A stretch of 64,000 nt of DNA from Escherichia coli (lineage in GTDB: Bacteria > Pseudomonadota > Gammaproteobacteria > Enterobacterales > Enterobacteriaceae): the NCBI RefSeq assembly GCF_044324785.1, contig NZ_CP172127.1; one strand, written 5' to 3'. Below are positions 20,721 through 53,328 of the stretch, piece by piece. Each line of letters starts with the position of its first letter. Within the stretch, counting starts at the first letter, position 1. The translations under genes were made by a program, and so were the position numbers. Below the pieces are notes generated by a model. The model saw only the letters and a program-made list of their open reading frames with translations, made no database searches and was not told the DNA's origin.

Positions 20721-20735
20721 TTTAACATTAATGCC

Positions 20736-20762
20736 AAAAACCGGGGAAACCCGGTTTTTTTT
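20736..20762 (+). terminator. rho-independent terminator of the aroK...trpS transcription unit
   Basis: aaaaa ccggg gaaa cccgg tttttttt, 16 nt after the trpS stop. Confidence 0.88.
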
Positions 20763-20880
20763 ATCCTCATTTGCAATAATCCGAAAAAATGTGAAGCGCC
20801 TCGCCGTTTCCACATCTCGCAGTTGCCACTTATCTTCATTTTTATGAAGATATAAATATTCACTTTATTGAAAATTTACT

Positions 20881-21786
20881 ATGCGTCGAACGTTTATCAA
20901 AAAAGAAGGCGTCGTCATCACGACACTGGCCCGTTATTTGTTGGGTGAAAAGTGCGGTAATCGACTGAAAACCATAGATGAGCTGGCAACTGAATGCCGT
21001 TCATCCGTTGGCCTGACGCAGGCCGCGTTGAAAACGCTGGAATCAAGCGGAGCGATACGGATTGAACGCCGTGGGCGCAATGGCAGTTATCTGGTGGAAA
21101 TGGATAACAAAGCATTGCTGAGTCATGTGGATATCAACAATGTGGTGTGCGCGATGCCCTTGCCCTATACCCGTTTGTACGAAGGCCTGGCGAGCGGATT
21201 GAAAGCTCAGTTTGATGGCATTCCTTTTTACTATGCGCATATGCGCGGCGCGGATATTCGCGTGGAGTGTTTACTTAACGGCGTGTATGACATGGCGGTT
21301 GTTTCCCGACTGGCGGCGGAAAGTTATCTCACGCAAAAAGGCTTATGCCTCGCGCTGGAGTTGGGGCCGCACACCTACGTTGGCGAGCACCAGTTGATTT
21401 GCCGTAAAGGCGAGTCCGCAAACGTGAAGCGTGTGGGGCTGGATAACCGTTCGGCGGATCAGAAAATCATGACCGATGTTTTTTTTGGCGATACGGATGT
21501 GGAACGAGTCGATCTCTCCTATCACGAGAGTTTACAACGCATTGTTAAAGGCGATGTTGATGCGGTTATCTGGAACGTGGTGGCGGAAAACGAACTGACC
21601 ATGCTGGGATTAGAAGCGACGCCGCTCACAGATGATCCGCGATTTTTACAGGCCACCGAAGCCGTGGTCCTGACGCGAGTCGATGATTACCCAATGCAAC
21701 AACTGCTGCGTGCAGTTGTTGATAAACATGCCCTGCTTGCCCATCAACAACGCGTGGTGAGTGGGGAACAGGAACCCAGTTATTAA
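20881..21786 (+). CDS. yhfZ: putative transcriptional regulator of the yhf cluster
   Basis: ORF track 301 aa; first gene of the co-directional yhfZ...yhfS block. Confidence 0.8.
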   Translation: MRRTFIKKEGVVITTLARYLLGEKCGNRLKTIDELATECRSSVGLTQAALKTLESSGAIRIERRGRNGSYLVEMDNKALLSHVDINNVVCAMPLPYTRLYEGLASGLKAQFDGIPFYYAHMRGADIRVECLLNGVYDMAVVSRLAAESYLTQKGLCLALELGPHTYVGEHQLICRKGESANVKRVGLDNRSADQKIMTDVFFGDTDVERVDLSYHESLQRIVKGDVDAVIWNVVAENELTMLGLEATPLTDDPRFLQATEAVVLTRVDDYPMQQLLRAVVDKHALLAHQQRVVSGEQEPSY

Positions 21787-21802
21787 ACGAAAGGCATCTG
21801 AT

Positions 21803-22165
21803 ATGGAAACCAGACTCAACCTGCTTTGCGATGCAGGCGTTATTGATAAGGACATCTGCAAAGGCATGATGCAGGTCGTCAAGGTACTGGAAACAGAGTG
21901 CCATCTGCCGGTGCGCAGTGAGCAAGGAACGATGGCAATGACACATATGGCGAGTGCACTGATGCGCAGTCGCCGTGGTGAAGAAATAGAGCCGCTGGAC
22001 GCCGAATTGCTGGCAGAACTGGCGCAATCCAGCCACTGGCAAGCCGTTGTGCAATTGCATCAGGTGTTGTTGAAGGAATTTACACTGGAAGTTAACCCGT
22101 GTGAAGAAGGCTATTTGCTGGCCAACCTTTATGGATTATGGATGGCTGCTAACGAAGAGGTTTGA
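21803..22165 (+). CDS. yhfY: small PRD-domain-like regulatory protein (family assignment from recollection)
   Basis: ORF track 134 aa trimmed to METRLNLLCD. Confidence 0.75.
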   Translation: METRLNLLCDAGVIDKDICKGMMQVVKVLETECHLPVRSEQGTMAMTHMASALMRSRRGEEIEPLDAELLAELAQSSHWQAVVQLHQVLLKEFTLEVNPCEEGYLLANLYGLWMAANEEV

Positions 22166-22195
22166 AGCTCCCGACAAATCCACGTCGCACAACCT

Positions 22196-22219
22196 AAATA
22201 TTCAAAAAAATGAATATTT
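22196..22219. promoter_or_regulatory. perfect 9-6-9 inverted repeat (candidate operator or RNA hairpin) in the yhfY-yhfX gap
   Basis: AAATATTCA aaaaaa TGAATATTT, 30 nt upstream of the yhfX ATG. Confidence 0.4.
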
Positions 22220-22248
22220 AATTCAAGGAACAGAAACGAGGCAACAAG

Positions 22249-23412
22249 ATGTTTGTAGAAGCATTGAAACGCCAGAACCCGGCGCTAATTTCCGCCGCAC
22301 TAAGCTTGTGGCAAAAGGGCAAGATCGCCCCGGACAGCTGGGTGATCGACGTGGATCAGATACTGGAAAACGGTAAGCGGCTGATTGAGACGGCGCGGCT
22401 TTACGGCATTGAACTGTATCTGATGACCAAGCAGTTTGGTCGTAATCCGTGGCTGGCGGAAAAACTGCTGCCATTAGGCTACAGCGGCATTGTGGCGGTG
22501 GATTACAAAGAGGCGCGAGTCATGCGCCGCGCCGGTTTGCCGGTGGCGCATCAGGGGCATCTGGTACAAATCCCTTGTCATCAGGTTGCTGACGCCGTTG
22601 CACAGGGCACCGACGTCATCACCGTGTTTACTCTCGACAAAGCGCGGGAAGTTTCTGCGGCAGCGGTGAAGGCCGGACGTGTGCAGTCTGTGCTGCTCAA
22701 AGTTTATAGCGACGATGATTTTCTTTATCCGGGGCAGGAGAGCGGTTTTGTACAGCATTCGCTGCACGAGGTGGTTGCTGAAATTAAGAAACTGCCGGGG
22801 TTGCATTTAGCTGGACTAACCCATTTCCCTTGCCTGCTTTGGGATGAGGCTGCCGGGAAAGTTTTGCCGACACCGAATCTTCACACGCTGATACAGGCAC
22901 GGGATCAACTGGCGAAATCTGGTATTGCGATTGAGCAACTGAACGCACCTTCTGCGACCAGCTGCACTTCGCTGCCATTGCTGGCGGAATACGGTGTGAC
23001 TCATGCCGAACCCGGTCATGCGCTGACGGGCACTATTCCGGCAAACCAGCAGGGCGATCAGCCTGAACGTATCGCGATGCTCTGGTTAAGTGAAATCTCC
23101 CATCATTTCCGTGGCGACAGCTACTGCTACGGCGGCGGTTACTACCGTCGTGGTCATGCGCAACATGCGCTGGTGTTTACGCCAGAAAATCAAAAGATTA
23201 CTGAAACCAATCTCAAAGCCGTGGATGACAGCAGTATCGACTACACCCTGCCGCTGGCAGGTGAGTTTCCGGTAAGCAGTGCAGTAGTGCTCTGTTTTCG
23301 CACGCAGATTTTTGTCACCCGTAGCGATGTGGTGTTGCTGTCCGGTATTCACCGTGGCGAACCAGAAATCGTCGGTCGTTATGACAGTCTTGGAAACTCT
23401 CTGGGGGCGTAA
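22249..23412 (+). CDS. yhfX: alanine-racemase-fold PLP-dependent protein, substrate unknown
   Basis: ORF track 387 aa. Confidence 0.82.
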
Positions 23413-24638
23413 TGGCGCGATTTGTGGTGTTAGTGATTGATAGCTTTGGCGTAGGGGCAATGAAAGATGTCACGTTGGTGCGTCCGCAGGATGCCGGGGC
23501 GAATACCTGTGGTCACATCCTGAGCCAGTTGCCGCATTTGCAGCTACCAGCGCTGGAGAAGCTGGGGCTAATCAACGCATTGGGTTATGCACCAGGTGAT
23601 ATGCAGCCGTCAGACTCCGCAACTTGGGGTGTGGCAGAGCTGCAACATGAAGGTGGCGATACCTTTATGGGGCATCAGGAAATTTTAGGCACGCGCCCGT
23701 TACCGCCGCTGCGGATGCCCTTTCGTGATGTGATTGACCGTGTTGAGCAGGCATTAGTTTCCGCTGGCTGGCTGGTTGAGCGTCGTGGCGATGATCTGCA
23801 ATTTCTGTGGGTCAATCAGGCGGTTGCGATTGGCGATAATCTCGAGGCGGATTTAGGCCAGGTCTATAACATCACCGCCAATCTCTCTGTGATCTCTTTT
23901 GACGACGCAATCAAAATTGGTCGTATTGTGCGTGAGCAGGTACAGGTCGGTCGGGTCATTACATTTGGTGGCCTGTTAACCGACAGTCAACGCATTCTCG
24001 ATGCCGCAGAAAGCAAAGAAGGGCGCTTTATTGGTATCAATGCGCCGCGTTCTGGCGCTTATGACAACGGCTTCCAGGTCGTGCATATGGGCTACGGTGT
24101 CGATGAGAAAGTGCAGGTGCCGCAAAAACTGTATGAAGCGGGCGTGCCAACCGTGCTGGTGGGTAAGGTGGCGGATATTGTCAGCAATCCTTATGGCGTG
24201 AGCTGGCAAAACCTGGTGGATAGCCAACGGATTATGGATATCACTCTCAACGAATTTAACACCCATCCGACGGCGTTTATTTGTACCAATATCCAGGAAA
24301 CCGACCTCGCTGGTCATGCAGAAGACGTCGCACGTTATGCCGAACGTTTGCAGGTCGTTGACCGTAACCTTGCCCGGCTTATTGAGGCGATGCAGCCAGA
24401 TGATTGCCTGGTCGTGATGGCGGATCACGGTAACGATCCGACCATTGGTCACAGCCACCATACCCGCGAAGTGGTGCCAGTGCTGGTTTATCAGCAAGGG
24501 ATGGTCGCTACGCAGCTCGGTGTGCGCACCACGCTTTCTGATGTGGGGGCTACCGTGTGTGAATTTTTCCGTGCGCCACCGCCACAAAATGGTCGCTCTT
24601 TTCTTTCCTCCCTCCGGTTTGCAGGAGACACCCTATGA
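23412..24638 (+). CDS. yhfW: phosphopentomutase-like metalloenzyme, putative mutase
   Basis: ORF track 408 aa; N-terminus [17 protein letters not shown] resembles the DeoB-type metal-binding start. Confidence 0.82.
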
Positions 24639-25513
24639 GTATTGATCCGACGGGTTACACCCTCGCCCATGAGCATCTGCATATTGATCTCTCCGGCTTT
24701 AAAAACAACGTGGACTGCCGCCTTGATCAGTATGCGTTCATTTGCCAGGAGATGAACGACCTGATGGCCCAGGGCGTGCGTAATGTGATTGAGATGACCA
24801 ACCGTTACATGGGGCGAAATGCGCAATTTATGCTCGATGTGATGCACGAAACTGGCATCAACGTGGTGGCCTGTACCGGTTATTACCAGGATGCGTTTTT
24901 CCCGCAACATGTGGCGACCCGCAGCGTACAGGAACTGGCGCAGGAGATGGTCGATGAAATTGATCAGGGTATCGATGGCACGGAACTGAAAGCCGGGATC
25001 ATCGCGGAGATCGGCTCCAGCGAAGGGAAGATTACGCCGCTGGAAGAGAAGGTGTTTATTGCCGCCGCGCTGGCACATAACCAGACCGGACGCCCGATCT
25101 CCACGCATACGTCGTTCAGCACGATGGGGCTGGAACAACTGGCTCTGTTGCAAGCCCACGGAGTTAATCTTTCGCGCGTCACCGTTGGTCACTGCGATCT
25201 GAAAGACAACCTCGACAACATTTTGAAGATGATCGATCTCGGCGCGTATGTGCAGTTCGACACCATCGGCAAGAACAGTTACTACCCGGACGAAAGGCGC
25301 ATTGCGATGCTCCACGCGCTACGTGACCGTGGTTTGCTGAACCGCGTCATGCTGTCGATGGATATTACGCGCCGCTCCCATTTAAAAGCCAACGGTGGTT
25401 ATGGCTATGACTATTTATTGACCACCTTTATTCCGCAATTGCGCCAGTCAGGATTCAGTCAGGCCGATGTGGATGTGATGTTACGTGAAACTCCCTCTCA
25501 ATTTTTCCAATAA
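24635..25513 (+). CDS. php: phosphotriesterase-homology protein (amidohydrolase superfamily)
   Basis: ORF track 292 aa; N-terminal HxH metal motif ([14 protein letters not shown]). Confidence 0.9.
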
Positions 25514-25523
25514 GGACAGACTC

Positions 25524-25877
25524 ATGAAAAAGATTGGTGTTGCAGGCTTACAGCGTGAGCAGATTAAAAAAACCATTGAAGCGACGGCTCCTGGCTGTTT
25601 TGAAGTTTTCATTCACAACGACATGGAAGCGGCAATGAAAGTCAAATCCGGGCAACTGGATTACTACATCGGCGCGTGTAATACCGGTGCGGGCGCGGCA
25701 TTGTCGATTGCCATCGCGGTGATTGGCTATAACAAAAGTTGCACCATTGCCAAACCAGGCATTAAAGCGAAAGACGAACATATCGCCAAAATGATCGCCG
25801 AAGGGAAAGTGGCGTTTGGGCTTTCCGTTGAGCACGTCGAACACGCGATTCCGATGCTGATTAACCATCTGAAATAA
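25524..25877 (+). CDS. yhfU: small conserved protein of unknown function
   Basis: ORF track 130 aa trimmed to MKKIGVAGLQ (117 aa). Confidence 0.78.
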   Translation: MKKIGVAGLQREQIKKTIEATAPGCFEVFIHNDMEAAMKVKSGQLDYYIGACNTGAGAALSIAIAVIGYNKSCTIAKPGIKAKDEHIAKMIAEGKVAFGLSVEHVEHAIPMLINHLK

Positions 25878-25888
25878 AAGGCACGACT

Positions 25889-27193
25889 ATGGATCTGTAT
25901 ATTCAGATTATCGTGGTGGCGTGCCTGACGGGTATGACATCGCTTCTGGCGCATCGCTCGGCGGCCGTTTTTCATGACGGTATCCGCCCGATCCTGCCGC
26001 AACTGATTGAAGGCTATATGAACCGTCGCGAGGCGGGGAGTATCGCTTTTGGTCTGAGCATTGGTTTTGTGGCTTCGGTGGGGATCTCTTTTACCCTGAA
26101 AACCGGACTGCTCAACGCATGGTTACTCTTTCTTCCTACCGATATCCTCGGCGTACTGGCGATAAACAGCCTGATGGCGTTTGGTCTTGGCGCTATCTGG
26201 GGCGTGTTGATCCTTACTTGCCTGTTACCGGTAAACCAGCTGCTGACCGCGCTACCGGTGGATGTATTAGGTAGCCTGGGGGAATTAAGCTCGCCGGTGG
26301 TTTCAGCTTTTGCACTGTTCCCGTTGGTGGCGATTTTCTACCAGTTTGGCTGGAAGCAAAGTCTGATCGCCGCCGTGGTGGTACTGATGACCCGTGTGGT
26401 GGTAGTGCGCTATTTCCCGCATCTCAATCCGGAATCCATCGAAATCTTTATTGGCATGGTGATGCTGCTGGGGATCGCGATAACTCACGACCTGCGTCAT
26501 CGTGATGAAAATGATATTGATGCCAGCGGGCTTTCGGTGTTTGAAGAACGCACGTCGCGGATTATCAAAAACTTACCGTATATCGCTATTGTCGGGGCGC
26601 TGATTGCCGCCGTTGCCAGCATGAAGATTTTTGCTGGCAGTGAAGTGTCGATCTTCACACTGGAGAAAGCATATTCCGCAGGCGTAACGCCGGAACAATC
26701 ACAAACGCTGATTAACCAGGCAGCTCTGGCGGAATTTATGCGCGGGCTGGGTTTTGTACCGTTGATTGCCACCACCGCGTTAGCCACTGGTGTGTATGCA
26801 GTTGCGGGCTTTACCTTTGTTTATGCGGTGGGCTATCTCTCGCCGAATCCGATGGTTGCAGCGGTATTAGGCGCAGTGGTTATTTCGGCGGAAGTCCTGC
26901 TGCTTCGTTCGATCGGCAAATGGCTGGGGCGCTATCCGTCGGTGCGTAATGCGTCAGATAACATCCGTAACGCCATGAATATGCTGATGGAAGTGGCGTT
27001 GCTGGTCGGTTCGATTTTCGCAGCAATTAAAATGGCGGGTTATACCGGATTTTCTATCGCAGTTGCCATTTACTTCCTCAACGAATCCCTGGGCCGTCCG
27101 GTACAGAAAATGGCGGCACCGGTCGTGGCAGTAATGATCACCGGTATTCTGCTGAATGTTCTTTACTGGTTTGGCCTGTTCGTTCCGGCTTAA
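25889..27193 (+). CDS. yhfT: polytopic inner-membrane protein (putative transporter)
   Basis: ORF track 434 aa, hydrophobic throughout. Confidence 0.85.
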   Translation: MDLYIQIIVVACLTGMTSLLAHRSAAVFHDGIRPILPQLIEGYMNRREAGSIAFGLSIGFVASVGISFTLKTGLLNAWLLFLPTDILGVLAINSLMAFGLGAIWGVLILTCLLPVNQLLTALPVDVLGSLGELSSPVVSAFALFPLVAIFYQFGWKQSLIAAVVVLMTRVVVVRYFPHLNPESIEIFIGMVMLLGIAITHDLRHRDENDIDASGLSVFEERTSRIIKNLPYIAIVGALIAAVASMKIFAGSEVSIFTLEKAYSAGVTPEQSQTLINQAALAEFMRGLGFVPLIATTALATGVYAVAGFTFVYAVGYLSPNPMVAAVLGAVVISAEVLLLRSIGKWLGRYPSVRNASDNIRNAMNMLMEVALLVGSIFAAIKMAGYTGFSIAVAIYFLNESLGRPVQKMAAPVVAVMITGILLNVLYWFGLFVPA

Positions 27194-27204
27194 GGAAGGC
27201 ACCT

Positions 27205-28290
27205 ATGAAGACGTATCCTTTGCAAAGCCTGACGCTTATTGAGGCGCAGCAAAAGCAGTTTGCGCTGGTGGACACGATTTGCCGCCATTTTCCCGGCAGC
27301 GAGTTTCTTACCCGCGGGGATTTGGGCTTAACGCCGGGGCTGAATCAACCGCGCATTACCCAGCGAGTGGAACAGGTGCTGGCTGATGCATTTCACGCAC
27401 AGGCTGCGGCGCTGGTACAGGGCGCGGGTACTGGCGCGATCCGTGCGGCGTTGGCGGCTTTGCTCATACCGGGGCAGCGTCTTCTGGTGCATGACGCGCC
27501 TGTTTACCCGACGACTCAGGTCATTATTGAGCAGATGGGGCTGACGCTTATTACTGCTAATTTCAATGACCTGTCGGCACTTAAGCAGGTCGTCGAAGAG
27601 CAACAACCGGATGCGGCTCTGGTGCAGCATACGCGCCAGCAGCCGCAGGACGGGTACATTCTGGCAGATGTGCTGGCAACGTTGCGCTCGGCTGGCGTTC
27701 CTGCATTAACCGATGACAACTATGCGGTGATGAAGGTAGCGCGAATTGGCTGCGAATGCGGGGCAAATGTCTCGACTTTTTCCTGCTTCAAGCTGTTTGG
27801 GCCGGAGGGTGTTGGCGCGGTGGTAGGCGATGCCGATGTTATTAGTCGGATTCGCGCCACGCTCTACTCCGGCGGCAGCCAGATTCAGGGCGCTCAGGCG
27901 TTGGAAGTCTTGCGTGGGCTGGTGTTTGCGCCAGTGATGCACGCGGTGCAGGCGGGGGTATCTGAACGGTTGCTGGCCTTGCTCAACGGTGGTGCAGTTC
28001 CGGAAGTGAAAAGCGCCGTCATTGCCAATGCACAGTCGAAGGTGTTGATTGTCGAGTTTCATCAGCCGATTGCCGCCAGAGTGCTGGAAGAGGCGCAAAA
28101 GCGCGGTGCCTTGCCTTACCCGGTTGGTGCAGAGTCGAAATATGAAGTTCCGCCACTTTTTTATCGACTTTCCGGAACGTTTCGCCAGGCGAATCCGCAA
28201 CTCGAACATTACGCGATTCGTATTAACCCAAATCGCAGCGGTGAAGAGACGGTGCTGCGGATTTTGCGTGAGAGTATTGCGAGTATTTAA
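27205..28290 (+). CDS. yhfS: conserved protein of unknown function (possibly PLP-dependent; uncertain)
   Basis: ORF track 361 aa; last gene of the yhf block. Confidence 0.8.
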   Translation: MKTYPLQSLTLIEAQQKQFALVDTICRHFPGSEFLTRGDLGLTPGLNQPRITQRVEQVLADAFHAQAAALVQGAGTGAIRAALAALLIPGQRLLVHDAPVYPTTQVIIEQMGLTLITANFNDLSALKQVVEEQQPDAALVQHTRQQPQDGYILADVLATLRSAGVPALTDDNYAVMKVARIGCECGANVSTFSCFKLFGPEGVGAVVGDADVISRIRATLYSGGSQIQGAQALEVLRGLVFAPVMHAVQAGVSERLLALLNGGAVPEVKSAVIANAQSKVLIVEFHQPIAARVLEEAQKRGALPYPVGAESKYEVPPLFYRLSGTFRQANPQLEHYAIRINPNRSGEETVLRILRESIASI

Positions 28291-28326
28291 TGCTGGATAG
28301 CCCCGTTCGGCAATCAAGCTAAATTC

Positions 28327-28395
28327 AGCGCCGGACGGTCCCCGCAACGCGCCAGCATCGCCGGATGCGATGCTGGCGCATCTTATCCGGCCTAC
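28327..28395. repeat. REP/BIME element between convergent yhfS and frlR
   Basis: cgccggatgcgatgctggcgcatcttatccggcctac matches the canonical REP palindrome; partial second unit upstream. Confidence 0.75.
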
Positions 28396-40875: not shown

Positions 40876-41457
<582 letters not shown>

Positions 41458-41466
41458 TGATTTCTC

Positions 41467-41488
41467 GCGCGGGCAATCTTGCCCGCGC
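41467..41488 (+). terminator. GC-rich hairpin downstream of ppiA (probable terminator, weak U-tract)
   Basis: gcgcgggc aatctt gcccgcgc, 10 nt after the ppiA stop. Confidence 0.55.
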
Positions 41489-41561
41489 TTCTGCTCTCCC
41501 GGCGTAACCCGGATTTGCCGCTTATACTTGTGGCAAATGGACACGTTCAGGGAGGCATCAA

Positions 41562-41729
41562 GTGAAGAAACTCACCGATAAGCAAAAGTCCCGTCTCTGG
41601 GAACTTCAGCGTAATCGTAATTTCCAGGCCAGTCGCCGTCTTGAAGGCGTCGAGATGCCTTTAGTCACTCTTACTGCCGCAGAGGCTTTAGCGCGCCTTG
41701 AAGAGCTGAGGAGGCACTATGAGCGATAA
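41562..41729 (+). CDS. yhfG: small protein YhfG (55 aa), candidate Fic antitoxin/inhibitor
   Basis: GTG start preceded by ggagg SD; translation [55 protein letters not shown]; overlaps the fic start by 11 nt. Confidence 0.8.
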
Positions 41730-42321
41730 ATTCGGCGAAGGGCGCGATCCGTATCTTTATCCTGGCCTTGATATCATGCGTAACCGGCTGAACATCCGCC
41801 AGCAGCAGCGGCTGGAACAGGCCGCTTACGAAATGACGGCGCTGCGTGCTGCGACCATTGAGCTTGGTCCGCTGGTGCGCGGTTTACCGCATTTGCGCAC
41901 TATCCATCGCCAGCTGTATCAGGATATTTTCGACTGGGCAGGGCAACTGCGTGAAGTTGATATTTATCAGGGCGATACGCCGTTCTGCCACTTTGCCTAT
42001 ATCGAAAAAGAGGGCAATGCCCTGATGCAGGATCTGGAGGAAGAAGGTTATCTGGTTGGCCTGGATAAAGCGAAGTTCGTCGAGCGGCTGGCACATTACT
42101 ATTGTGAAATCAACGTGCTGCATCCCTTCCGTGTGGGAAGCGGACTGGCACAGCGGATCTTCTTCGAGCAGCTGGCGATTCATGCGGGCTACCAACTGAG
42201 CTGGCAGGGTATCGAAAAAGAGGCCTGGAATCAGGCAAATCAGAGTGGGGCAATGGGGGATCTCACCGCGCTGCAGATGATATTTAGCAAAGTGGTAAGC
42301 GAAGCCGGGGAATCTGAGTAA
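41719..42321 (+). CDS. fic: Fic-domain protein
   Basis: ORF track 200 aa; Fic-like motif [12 protein letters not shown] at residues 135-146. Confidence 0.9.
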
Positions 42322-42352
42322 AATAGCGCGGTTCTTTCGTACCGGAGCCGCC

Positions 42353-42916
42353 ATGATCCTGCTTATAGATAACTACGATTCTTTTACCTGGAACCTCTAC
42401 CAGTACTTTTGTGAACTGGGGGCGGATGTGCTGGTTAAGCGCAACGATGCGTTGACGCTGGCGGATATCGACGCCCTTAAACCACAAAAAATTGTCATCT
42501 CACCCGGACCCTGTACGCCAGATGAAGCCGGGATCTCCCTTGACGTTATTCGCCACTATGCCGGGTGCTTGCCGATTCTTGGCGTTTGCCTCGGTCATCA
42601 GGCAATGGCGCAGGCATTTGGCGGTAAAGTTGTGCGCGCCGCAAAGGTCATGCACGGCAAAACCTCGCCGATTACACATAACGGTGAGGGCGTATTTCGG
42701 GGGCTGGCAAATCCACTTACCGTGACACGCTACCATTCGCTGGTGGTGGAACCTGACTCATTACCAGCGTGCTTTGAAGTGACGGCCTGGAGCGAAACCC
42801 GCGAGATTATGGGGATTCGCCATCGCCAGTGGGATCTGGAAGGTGTGCAGTTCCACCCGGAAAGTATTCTCAGCGAACAAGGACATCAACTGCTGGCTAA
42901 TTTCCTGCATCGCTGA
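42353..42916 (+). CDS. pabA: aminodeoxychorismate synthase, glutamine amidotransferase subunit
   Basis: ORF track 187 aa; class I GATase motifs (ILGVCLGHQ). Confidence 0.95.
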
Positions 42917-50074: not shown

Positions 50075-50982
<908 letters not shown>

Positions 50983-51438
50983 TCCAGGAGATGCTCCTGC
51001 ATGGCTTTCAGATATGCATTTTCTGCGCGAAGATAACGCAGCTCATTCTTCATCTCTTCCGGCGTCATGTTTGCCTCGTTTTCATGGGTATCATCAGAAC
51101 GGGTCATGCTTTTCTCCTTCCTGCGCCTGATAAAGGCCTCATTACCAGATTTGCGGTAGCCTTTTATCCAGTTTTTAACCGTGTTGTGGCTGGGAATGTT
51201 AAACCGGGCAGCTACCCGGGGTAGAGACTCAGAATGCCCGAGAGCATAAAGAACCACGCAAAGTTTATCTTCAGGAGAATAGCTACGCTTGTGTCTGCAA
51301 TCCAGTGCCCGAGGACCGTGAAGAAGAAAAAGATTAATCCAGTGTGAGAGGCTGGTGTGAGAAAGTTGAAAGAGTTTTGCCGTAGAAATGATGCCTGCAT
51401 GACCAGCCAGGTAATGATTTACAGCGGCAAGTTTTACT

Positions 51439-53328
51439 TCAAATGAATGTTTCATAAACTGCACCTTCAGATGTCAGATTATGTCCAACATTTGGGGTGC
51501 AGTTCATGGCTTGCTGTTGCAGGCATGCGGTCAGTTCTGCTTTACGGCTTTGATCGTACAGTTCGCTGTCGCCGAGTTTCTCTTCCGCCTGCGCCAGCTG
51601 TGCGTTCAGCTTCTCCATCTCTTTTTCCAGACGGGCAATCTCTTTACGCAGTGGCTGGGTTTGCGCACGCAGCTCCGCTTCCCGACGCTTCTGATCTTTA
51701 CGTGCCTGGGCGCTGTTCGCGTTCTCTTTTGGCGAGTCGTCGGCCTGGTTTTCCTGCTTTTGTACGTCGCTCAACCACTGTTGATAATCTTCCAGATCGC
51801 CGTCGAACGGTTCGACTTTACGATCGTGAACCAGGTAGAGATCGTCAGTGGTGGAACGCAGCAAATGACGGTCGTGCGAGACGACAACCAGCGCGCCTTC
51901 GAACTCGATTAATGCTTCGGTGAGAGCCTGACGCATGTCGAGGTCAAGGTGGTTGGTCGGTTCGTCGAGCAGCAGCAGATTCGGACGCTGCCAGACGATT
52001 AATGCCAGCACCAGGCGGGCTTTTTCCCCACCGGAAAAGCGGCGCGTTTCTTCCGTCACTTTATCGCCCTGGAAACCAAAGCCGCCGAGGTAGTCACGCA
52101 GTTTTTGTTCCAGTTCCTGCGGCGCTAAACGTGCCAGATGTTGAATAGGCGATTCGTCGGCGCGCAGGTATTCCAGTTGATGCTGGGCGAAGTAGCCGAG
52201 CTTGATCCCTTTCGCCAGATCAATTTCACCGCTGACTGGCGCAAGTTCGCCGGCTAACAGTTTGATTAATGTCGATTTACCCGCGCCGTTGCGGCCTAAC
52301 AGACCAATGCGCGAGCCGGGGACCAGATTCAGTTTAATCGAGTCGAGAATAATGCGATCACCATAGCCTGCGCTGACTTTTTCCATCTTTAATAACGGAT
52401 TAGGCAGGCTTTCCGGCGCGCGGAAGCTAAAACGAAACGGGTTGTCAACGTGCGCGGGGGCAATCAGCTCCATACGCTCGAGCATCTTAATGCGGCTCTG
52501 GGCCTGCTTCGCTTTGGTGGCTTTGGCACGGAAACGGTCGATATAACTTTGCAGATGCGCCACGCGTTCCTGCTGGCTTTCGTACATCGCTTGTTGCTGC
52601 GCCAGACGGGTGGCGCGCTGCACTTCAAACGAACTGTAGTTGCCGGTGTACTCGAACATGCTTTGTTGTTCGATATGAATAATTTTATCAACGATCGGAT
52701 CGAGGAAGTCGCGGTCGTGAGAGATCAGGATCAGCGTGCCCTGATAGCTCTTCAGCCATTTTTCCAGCCAGATAACGGCATCGAGATCGAGGTGGTTAGT
52801 CGGTTCGTCGAGCAGCAGCAAGTCTGAACGGCAAATCAGCGCCTGGGCAAGGTTAAGACGCATACGCCAGCCCCCGGAAAAATCACTTACCGGGCGCTCC
52901 AGTTGTTCATTGCTGAAACCGAGGCCGTGCAGCAGGCTGGCGGCGCGGGAGCGAATACTCCATGCGTCGATAGCATCCAGCTTGCCATGAATGGTCGCAA
53001 TGGCGTGCCCGTCGTTACGTTCGTTGGCGTCGTGTAGCTGCGCTTCCAGTTGACGATATTCACGGTCGCCGTCAATGACATATTCCAGCGCCGCTTGCGG
53101 TAACGCCGGCGTTTCCTGATTCACCCACGCCAGTTGCCAGCTTCCCGGAAAGGTGTAGCTGCCGCCGTCGGCGCTGATTTCATTTTTCAGCAATGCCAGC
53201 AGGGTAGATTTACCACAGCCGTTTTTACCCACCAGGCCGACTTTCTGCCCGGGGTTGATGGTGGCGGTGGCATTATCCAGCAGGACGCGCACGCCGCGAC
53301 GAATTTGTAACGAGGAGAAAACAATCAT
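51439..53328 (-). CDS. yheS: ABC-F ATPase YheS with the 3' end interrupted by the IS: 607 native residues fused to 22 IS-encoded residues
   Basis: ORF track 629 aa; two ABC cassettes (Walker A GKNGCGKST and GRNGAGKST, signature LSGG); the reading frame crosses the IS boundary at 51506/51507 and stops inside the IS. Confidence 0.9.
   Translation of the reverse strand: MIVFSSLQIRRGVRVLLDNATATINPGQKVGLVGKNGCGKSTLLALLKNEISADGGSYTFPGSWQLAWVNQETPALPQAALEYVIDGDREYRQLEAQLHDANERNDGHAIATIHGKLDAIDAWSIRSRAASLLHGLGFSNEQLERPVSDFSGGWRMRLNLAQALICRSDLLLLDEPTNHLDLDAVIWLEKWLKSYQGTLILISHDRDFLDPIVDKIIHIEQQSMFEYTGNYSSFEVQRATRLAQQQAMYESQQERVAHLQSYIDRFRAKATKAKQAQSRIKMLERMELIAPAHVDNPFRFSFRAPESLPNPLLKMEKVSAGYGDRIILDSIKLNLVPGSRIGLLGRNGAGKSTLIKLLAGELAPVSGEIDLAKGIKLGYFAQHQLEYLRADESPIQHLARLAPQELEQKLRDYLGGFGFQGDKVTEETRRFSGGEKARLVLALIVWQRPNLLLLDEPTNHLDLDMRQALTEALIEFEGALVVVSHDRHLLRSTTDDLYLVHDRKVEPFDGDLEDYQQWLSDVQKQENQADDSPKENANSAQARKDQKRREAELRAQTQPLRKEIARLEKEMEKLNAQLAQAEEKLGDSELYDQSRKAELTACLQQQAMNCTPNVGHNLTSEGAVYETFI

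Follow-up and report, generated by a model that had tools for sequence, protein, structure and literature searches.

The yhfG–fic gene pair described here is the ordinary chromosomal yhfG–fic (ecficA–ecficT) operon of Escherichia coli. Its Fic protein carries a degenerate form of the FIC signature. The occurrence of this motif throughout the enterobacterial clade, the synteny of the locus, and the dN/dS values of the genes together indicate that the degenerate motif is an ancient, fixed, and selectively maintained state of a vertically inherited pair, and not decay. Both genes, the inhibitory motif in YhfG, the degenerate signature in Fic, and what these mean structurally are already known, having been published in 2016. 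The whole stretch of DNA analysed, here called the window, is 64,000 nucleotides long, and the features of the locus are given in its coordinates:

41467..41488, plus strand: GC-rich hairpin directly 3' of the ppiA stop codon, a putative ppiA terminator
41523..41528, plus strand: TATACT hexamer within GCTTATACTT, some 34 nt upstream of the yhfG GTG, a candidate sigma-S -10 element
41550..41555, plus strand: yhfG Shine–Dalgarno sequence GGGAGG, 6 nt 5' of the GTG
41562..41729, plus strand: yhfG (ecficA), 55 aa, GTG start, a FicA-type antitoxin/inhibitor protein
41631..41648, plus strand: SRRLEG codons, YhfG residues 24–29 (S24...E28-G29), the end of the inhibitory helix
41709..41714, plus strand: fic Shine–Dalgarno sequence AGGAGG, inside the last yhfG codons and 4 nt before the fic ATG
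41719..42321, plus strand: fic (ecficT), 200 aa, ATG start, a class I FIC-domain protein
41881..41883, plus strand: Gly55 codon of fic, site of the historical fic-1 (G55R) mutation, wild-type here
42121..42156, plus strand: FIC signature codons, Fic residues 135–146 (H135...R146), degenerate

The identity of both proteins follows from family models and from solved structures. YhfG matches the Pfam family PF10832 (E 1.8e-24) and the NCBIfam equivalog PRK10204 (128 bits; cutoff 77). Fic belongs to the FIC domain family PF02661 (E 1.1e-13, residues 58–152), matches the equivalog PRK10347 (430 bits; cutoff 181), and has a 99%-identical chain that was solved as a FIC fold. Searches against the PDB recovered 5JFZ_A for Fic (E 8.5e-134, with 5JFF_A also at about 1e-133) and 5JFF_B for YhfG (E 3.9e-30, with 5JFZ_B also at about 1e-30); the proteins crystallised in these two entries are 98–99% identical to those encoded in the window. 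The pair is flanked by tsgA–ppiA on one side and pabA–argD on the other. Of 5426 complete E. coli genomes, 5425 carry the 1-kb region that contains it, with the genes annotated as fic and as yhfG or ficA.

In E. coli K-12, the counterparts are yhfG (b3362) and fic (b3361; P20605), equal in length to the window genes and likewise overlapping by 11 nt. The window aligns collinearly with positions 3,533,353–3,470,617 of the MG1655 chromosome (reverse strand) at 96–98% identity, apart from a single insertion. Each protein differs from its K-12 counterpart by one residue: D116 replaces E116 in Fic, and R51 replaces S51 in YhfG. At the nucleotide level, fic differs at 14 positions, 13 of them synonymous. 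Three of the synonymous differences lie inside the signature-motif codons, which contain no replacements.

Other differences from K-12 lie elsewhere in the window. A 1432-bp copy of IS1397 (IS3 family) occupies positions 50075–51506, inside the 3' end of yheS (K-12 about 3483106–3483110). Its terminal inverted repeats read TGAACTG[A/C]ACCCCAAA, and its 4-bp target duplication is TGGC. The insertion replaces the C-terminus of YheS, which is 629 aa long here and 637 aa in K-12. REP units are the usual intergenic target of IS1397, so a copy inside a gene is unusual; the left flank of this copy, CAGGCCGGATTTGGCGCTGGC, looks like one half of a REP palindromic unit. None of the 5426 complete genomes covered both junctions of the insertion (best coverage 82%). 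Positions 20722–28345 (K-12 3504919–3512486, the yhfS–yhfZ region) are 95.7% identical to K-12, compared with about 98% for the remaining window. Small unaligned gaps flank both ends of this divergent tract, which may be a recombination tract.

Candidate expression signals lie upstream of yhfG. The hairpin downstream of ppiA has a folding energy of -20 kcal/mol (z -5.0), a value that 200 shuffled sequences all failed to reach. Its T-run is weak (CTTCTGCTCT), and a simple terminator scan therefore skipped it. It is a probable ppiA terminator that would separate ppiA from yhfG–fic. The promoter scan returned no sigma-70 consensus promoter within 41300–42500, and the TATACT hexamer is a plausible -10 element of a sigma-S-dependent yhfG–fic promoter. 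Published work counts yhfG–fic among the RpoS-dependent operons of E. coli O157 (PMC2907692), and places fic and yhfG among hub genes that are upregulated under multiple stresses (PMC9501238). An Rfam scan of the whole window gave no matches, and no RNA element was seen at the yhfG–fic locus. Antisense ORFs inside fic (for example 41884–42354, minus strand) lacked support and were treated as chance occurrences.

Translation signals precede both genes. The GGGAGG upstream of yhfG is also found in Salmonella, Klebsiella, and Leclercia. The position of the fic Shine–Dalgarno sequence inside the end of yhfG suggests that translation of the two genes is coupled. Codon 51 of yhfG (41712–41714) doubles as part of this ribosome-binding site and reads AGG (R51) in the window and AGT (S51) in K-12. 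Consequently, the site is a perfect AGGAGG in the window and in Leclercia and CGGAGG in Salmonella, all with R51, and AGGAGT in K-12 and Klebsiella, with S51. This dual-coding codon could tune the ratio of Fic to YhfG.

An initial sequence-only reading of the locus had described a 55-aa YhfG ORF that overlaps the start of fic by 11 nt in a toxin–antitoxin-like layout, and had matched SRRLEG in YhfG to the Fic inhibitory-helix consensus [S/T]xxxE[G/N]. The ORF coordinates bear out the overlap, which is exactly 11 nt (41719–41729), and the consensus match lies at YhfG residues 24–29. A match to [ST]xxxE[GN] arises in 3.4% of composition shuffles of YhfG, so the motif alone is weak evidence. It is taken as real on the strength of the published co-crystal structure and of its conservation in Salmonella (SCRLEG), Klebsiella (SRRLEG), and Leclercia (SRLLEG). 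The layout was likewise well described as far as ancestry and architecture are concerned. YhfG–Fic was predicted as a toxin–antitoxin pair in 2009 (PMC2701414) and later classed as a class I FicTA module (PMC5033356), and the locus has the architecture of that class, in which a small inhibitory-helix gene with the [S/T]xxxE[G/N] motif lies directly upstream in the same operon. As a statement about function, the toxin label needs correcting: fic knock-outs are viable, with fic-1 described as a gain of function (PMC5033356), and the pair is vertically inherited. The term 'toxin–antitoxin' therefore denotes ancestry and architecture here, and not a demonstrated toxin function.

The structural basis of the interaction was established by Stanger, Harms, Dehio, and Schirmer (PLoS One 2016), who renamed the genes ecficA and ecficT (PMC5033356). 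YhfG and Fic associate 1:1 in a stable complex that melts at 63 C (PMC5033356). In the crystal structures 5JFF and 5JFZ, SRRLEG protrudes into the Fic active site, where S24 and E28 bond R146 (R2) and R25 contacts T40 (PMC5033356). The salt bridge between the inhibitory Glu and R2 in a stable complex is thus established by crystallography, and the YhfG substitution E28G makes the complex melt at a temperature 10 C lower (PMC5033356).

The Fic signature departs from HPFx[D/E]GNGRxxR at exactly three positions: V139, S141, and L143. Fic consequently does not carry the canonical FIC AMP-transferase motif, as the acidic residue is replaced by V, the N by S, and the R1 arginine by L, while the H, the F, both G residues, and R2 are kept. 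The same three deviations were described in 2016, when it was noted that L143 replaces the R1 residue that binds the ATP beta-phosphate, and that a hydrophobic residue replaces the acidic residue that coordinates Mg2+ (PMC5033356). The initial reading had listed these deviations, which were not a misreading, and had left undecided whether they are normal for E. coli or specific to this strain. They are normal: the motif is identical in K-12 and in the PDB constructs and is fixed across the enterobacterial clade. Its suggestion that AMPylation might be absent or altered agrees with the primary authors' report. No auto- or target-adenylylation by EcFicT was detected, including with the inhibition motif mutated (PMC5033356, citing Harms 2015), a negative result that applies only to the conditions tried.

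Conservation of the altered signature was assessed in close and in distant relatives. The close set consisted of the 120 best cluster representatives (at least 79% identity) from Escherichia, Salmonella, Citrobacter, Klebsiella, and Leclercia, and every one carries HPFR[VLIF]G[SN]G[LMI][AV]QR. Among 113 full-length representatives (at least 78% identity), H135, F137, G140, G142, Q145, R146, T40, Y67, F71, G55, D10, and Y12 are invariant. Position 139 is occupied only by V, I, L, or F and position 143 only by L, M, or I, while position 141 is S in 69 of these proteins and N in 44. Together with its hydrophobic residues at the R1 and D/E positions, the residues A36/T40/Y67/F71 and the ppiA–pabA locus place the window protein in the EcFicT-like enterobacterial subgroup (subgroup 3 of Stanger et al.).

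Distant relatives were collected by an exhaustive HMMER search as 50%-identity cluster representatives, 138 of which cover the motif. The motif is fully canonical in 115 of them, and these typically have E36/F67/Y71, compared with A/Y/F in EcFicT. The remaining 23 are fragments or members of the enterobacterial clade, with a few that have other single changes and one artefact. Four fragmentary representatives (P0125, P0127, P0128, and P0133) look frameshifted or truncated and were left out. One representative of a 50%-identity cluster, P0129 (212 aa, 48% identity), has no catalytic His (YFFCFGNGLIQC) and might be taken for an extreme degenerate Fic. It was rejected as an artefact of a C-to-T converted locus: in its source (L006, Logan SRR18107612), every C is read as T in a bisulfite-like pattern.

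The genomic context of the pair points to vertical descent. The order (tsgA-like MFS gene)–ppiA–yhfG–fic–pabA–argD is kept in Salmonella, Klebsiella, and Leclercia, as are the lengths of 55 aa and 200 aa and the 11-nt overlap. The pair is a core-genome element, syntenic across genera, and does not show the patchy, mobile distribution typical of type II toxin–antitoxin systems. The closest canonical relative (45% identity) has a mobile-looking context, with a 70-aa ORF upstream and adjoining Toprim/DUF3991 and AbiEii genes. Pairwise dN/dS is 0.02–0.12 for fic, 0.05–0.18 for yhfG, and 0.05–0.09 for pabA, a neighbouring housekeeping gene; these values are rough, as dS between genera is saturated. 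Both yhfG and fic are under purifying selection. Two simple accounts of the motif can be dismissed: a strain-specific degeneration is ruled out by the identical motif of K-12 and of the PDB constructs, and a decaying pseudogene by the low dN/dS of fic and its invariant active-site residues.

Single-chain versions of the pair occur in a few genomes. In Buttiauxella izardii (WP_120065544.1, represented here as P0284, with P0122 and P0285 as further examples), a single 200-aa YhfG'–'Fic ORF lies at the syntenic ppiA–pabA site:

Locus L005, 1011–1613: B. izardii fusion ORF
Locus L010, 3001–3603: B. izardii fusion ORF

The fusion joins approximately residues 1–29 of YhfG to a Fic portion that begins near residue 45, implying the loss of about 157 nt. 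Its inhibitory motif reads SSRLDI, without Glu–Gly, and its Fic motif, HPFFVGSGRAQR, retains R1. The fusion recurs in three slightly differing sequences of separate origin, so it is genuine and no assembly error. It could represent a natural switch from class I to a class II-like single chain, or an inactivated remnant. A few E. coli assemblies (P0001, P0274, and P0279; contigs up to 991 kb) encode a 252-aa YhfG–Fic single-chain fusion. Three different 1-nt deletions, located within the 11-nt overlap or immediately before it (window 41705–41729), give rise to them, with the junctions ...LRVTMSDKF, ...RRHYGDKF, and ...LRSTMSDKF. These fusions may be real alleles or sequencing errors.

A proposed history of the locus accommodates these observations. 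A class I FicTA module would have become fixed at the ppiA–pabA site in an enterobacterial ancestor, from which yhfG–fic descends. The YhfG inhibitory helix still inserts SRRLEG in the Fic active site and clamps R146 through S24 and E28, as 5JFF and 5JFZ establish. Fic keeps the catalytic His135, Phe137, both anion-hole glycines, and R146. It has exchanged the Mg2+-coordinating acidic residue (now V139) and the ATP beta-phosphate arginine (now L143), along with E36 to A, F67 to Y, and Y71 to F. That Fic is unable to bind ATP productively is well supported, since hydrophobic residues stand at R1 and at the position of the acidic metal ligand, and Y67 lies in the space of R1.

Fic is therefore most likely a neofunctionalised enzyme that is no longer an ATP-dependent AMP-transferase. 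With His135 and the anion hole, it would transfer, or act on, a phosphate-containing group supplied by a non-ATP donor. Its production would occur chiefly in stationary phase and under stress, from a sigma-S-dependent promoter, and YhfG would gate access both to R146 and to the new hydrophobic groove. This groove (A36/T40/Y67/F71/V139) is conserved and has been proposed to bind a non-ATP substrate (PMC5033356). On balance, we favour a Fic protein that retains FIC-type phosphoryl-group chemistry with a non-ATP donor, under the control of YhfG and in stationary phase. The argument is one of conservation: the catalytic His, the anion hole, R2, the flap residues, and the remodelled groove are invariant under purifying selection. 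Conservation of His135 and R146 in particular could equally be explained by a binding or scaffold role, or by the need to hold YhfG. In the founding member of the Fic family, a remodelled pocket that is strictly conserved in a larger sequence set argues for a real activity.

The principal alternative is that Fic is a catalytically dead pseudoenzyme, and that YhfG–Fic persists as a binding or scaffold module or as a carrier of transcription signals for pabA. Two residues that handle ATP and Mg2+ are indeed hydrophobic, 40 years have passed without an activity being found, and strains without fic survive. Moreover, fic always lies directly 5' of pabA, and pabA promoters have been mapped both within and upstream of fic. 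However, a promoter carrier alone would not constrain 200 codons together with the SxxxEG motif of a partner protein, and fic has the dN/dS of a housekeeping gene. H135, G140, G142, R146, T40, Y67, and F71 are all invariant in the 113 representatives, and the substitutions appear coordinated and unlike random decay, both in the comparison made here and in the earlier one (PMC5033356). A dead enzyme is consequently regarded as unlikely.

A different possibility is that the YhfG–Fic complex, which would always be assembled, is itself the active species and not an inhibited toxin. It could then act as a stationary-phase hydrolase, or eraser, that strips a protein of a nucleotide or phosphodiester adduct, or as a transferase that uses a hydrophobic phosphate-containing donor. 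The suggestion is an analogy with the Fic-1–AntF system of Pseudomonas bijieensis, whose deAMPylase essentials (His135, R146, and E28 of the antitoxin) are invariant here, while residues needed only for ATP have been lost. It is a distinctly improbable reading of the pair.

It is very improbable that EcFicT is a residual or conditional AMP-transferase, that is, a true FicT toxin which, when free of YhfG, adenylylates GyrB or ParE to a slight extent or in certain circumstances, for example at high temperature or with cAMP. Such an activity would explain fic-1 filamentation, the basis of which stayed unexplained in the structural study (PMC5033356). Related FicT proteins (VbhT, and Pseudomonas Fic-1, 8WT0, E 5.5e-49) AMPylate GyrB and cause filamentation, and EcFicT keeps the adenine pocket and the Asn that precedes the motif (PMC5033356). 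Two reviews also list E. coli K-12 FicT with the growth-inhibiting toxins that adenylylate gyrase or Topo IV (PMC7758455, PMC10886550). This listing conflicts with the statement of the primary authors, who saw no adenylylation even with the inhibition motif mutated (PMC5033356), and the mechanism of EcFicT was still called elusive in 2026 (PMC13327609). The R1 and Mg2+-coordinating positions are hydrophobic clade-wide, an arginine at R1 would collide with Y67 (PMC5033356), and vertical inheritance is atypical of an addiction toxin.

There is similarly little probability in a strictly de-modifying enzyme, in which a constitutive YhfG–Fic complex would hydrolyse AMP or a related phosphodiester adduct off a protein, the forward reaction having been lost. 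The precedent is again Fic-1–AntF, where deAMPylation of GyrB needs E28 of AntF and complex formation, and where H135A is reported to be inactive. EcFicT and YhfG keep His135, R146, S24, and E28 at equal residue numbers, their complex is very stable, and the lost R1 residue contacts the beta-phosphate, which is absent from an AMP adduct. However, deAMPylation requires a divalent metal. In addition, the cleft that is negative in Fic-1 (E29/E36/E139) reads Q29/A36/V139 in EcFicT, which weakens the analogy. Furthermore, no cognate AMPylating FicT is known in K-12 for such an enzyme to reverse.

The favoured reading, a phosphoryl-group chemistry retained with a non-ATP donor, can be set against the systems that most resemble the pair. 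K-12 EcFicT/EcFicA (PDB 5JFF, 5JFZ) is the same locus, with the same proteins, Fic motif, inhibitory motif, overlap, and neighbours. The window shows allelic differences only, comprising 17 nucleotide differences that are mostly synonymous. The prototype FicTA system, VbhT/VbhA of Bartonella schoenbuchensis (PDB 3SHG, 3ZC7, 3ZCB; E about 1e-33), shares the fold and the inhibition of R2 by a Glu. Unlike EcFicT, VbhT combines a canonical motif with a C-terminal BID domain, and YhfG, which consists of two helices joined by a loop, has an 8-residue deletion relative to VbhA (PMC5033356). The phosphocholinase AnkX and the kinase Doc provide precedents for an altered signature that accompanies a changed donor or transferred group while the catalytic His is kept. 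However, their motifs and pockets differ from those of EcFicT. Fic-1/AntF of P. bijieensis (PDB 8WT0; E 5.5e-49) is a class I system in which the small inhibitor gene also lies upstream. Its Fic protein matches EcFicT in length and residue numbering (H135 and R146, with S24 and E28 in the antitoxin), and is reported to superpose on 5JFF with an RMSD of 0.9 A. Fic-1 has the canonical motif HPFREGNGRAQR; according to a 2026 report, it AMPylates GyrB and, with AntF, deAMPylates it. The two proteins diverge where Fic-1 has E139/N141/R143 and EcFicT has V/S/L, and where E29/E36 of Fic-1 correspond to Q/A in EcFicT.
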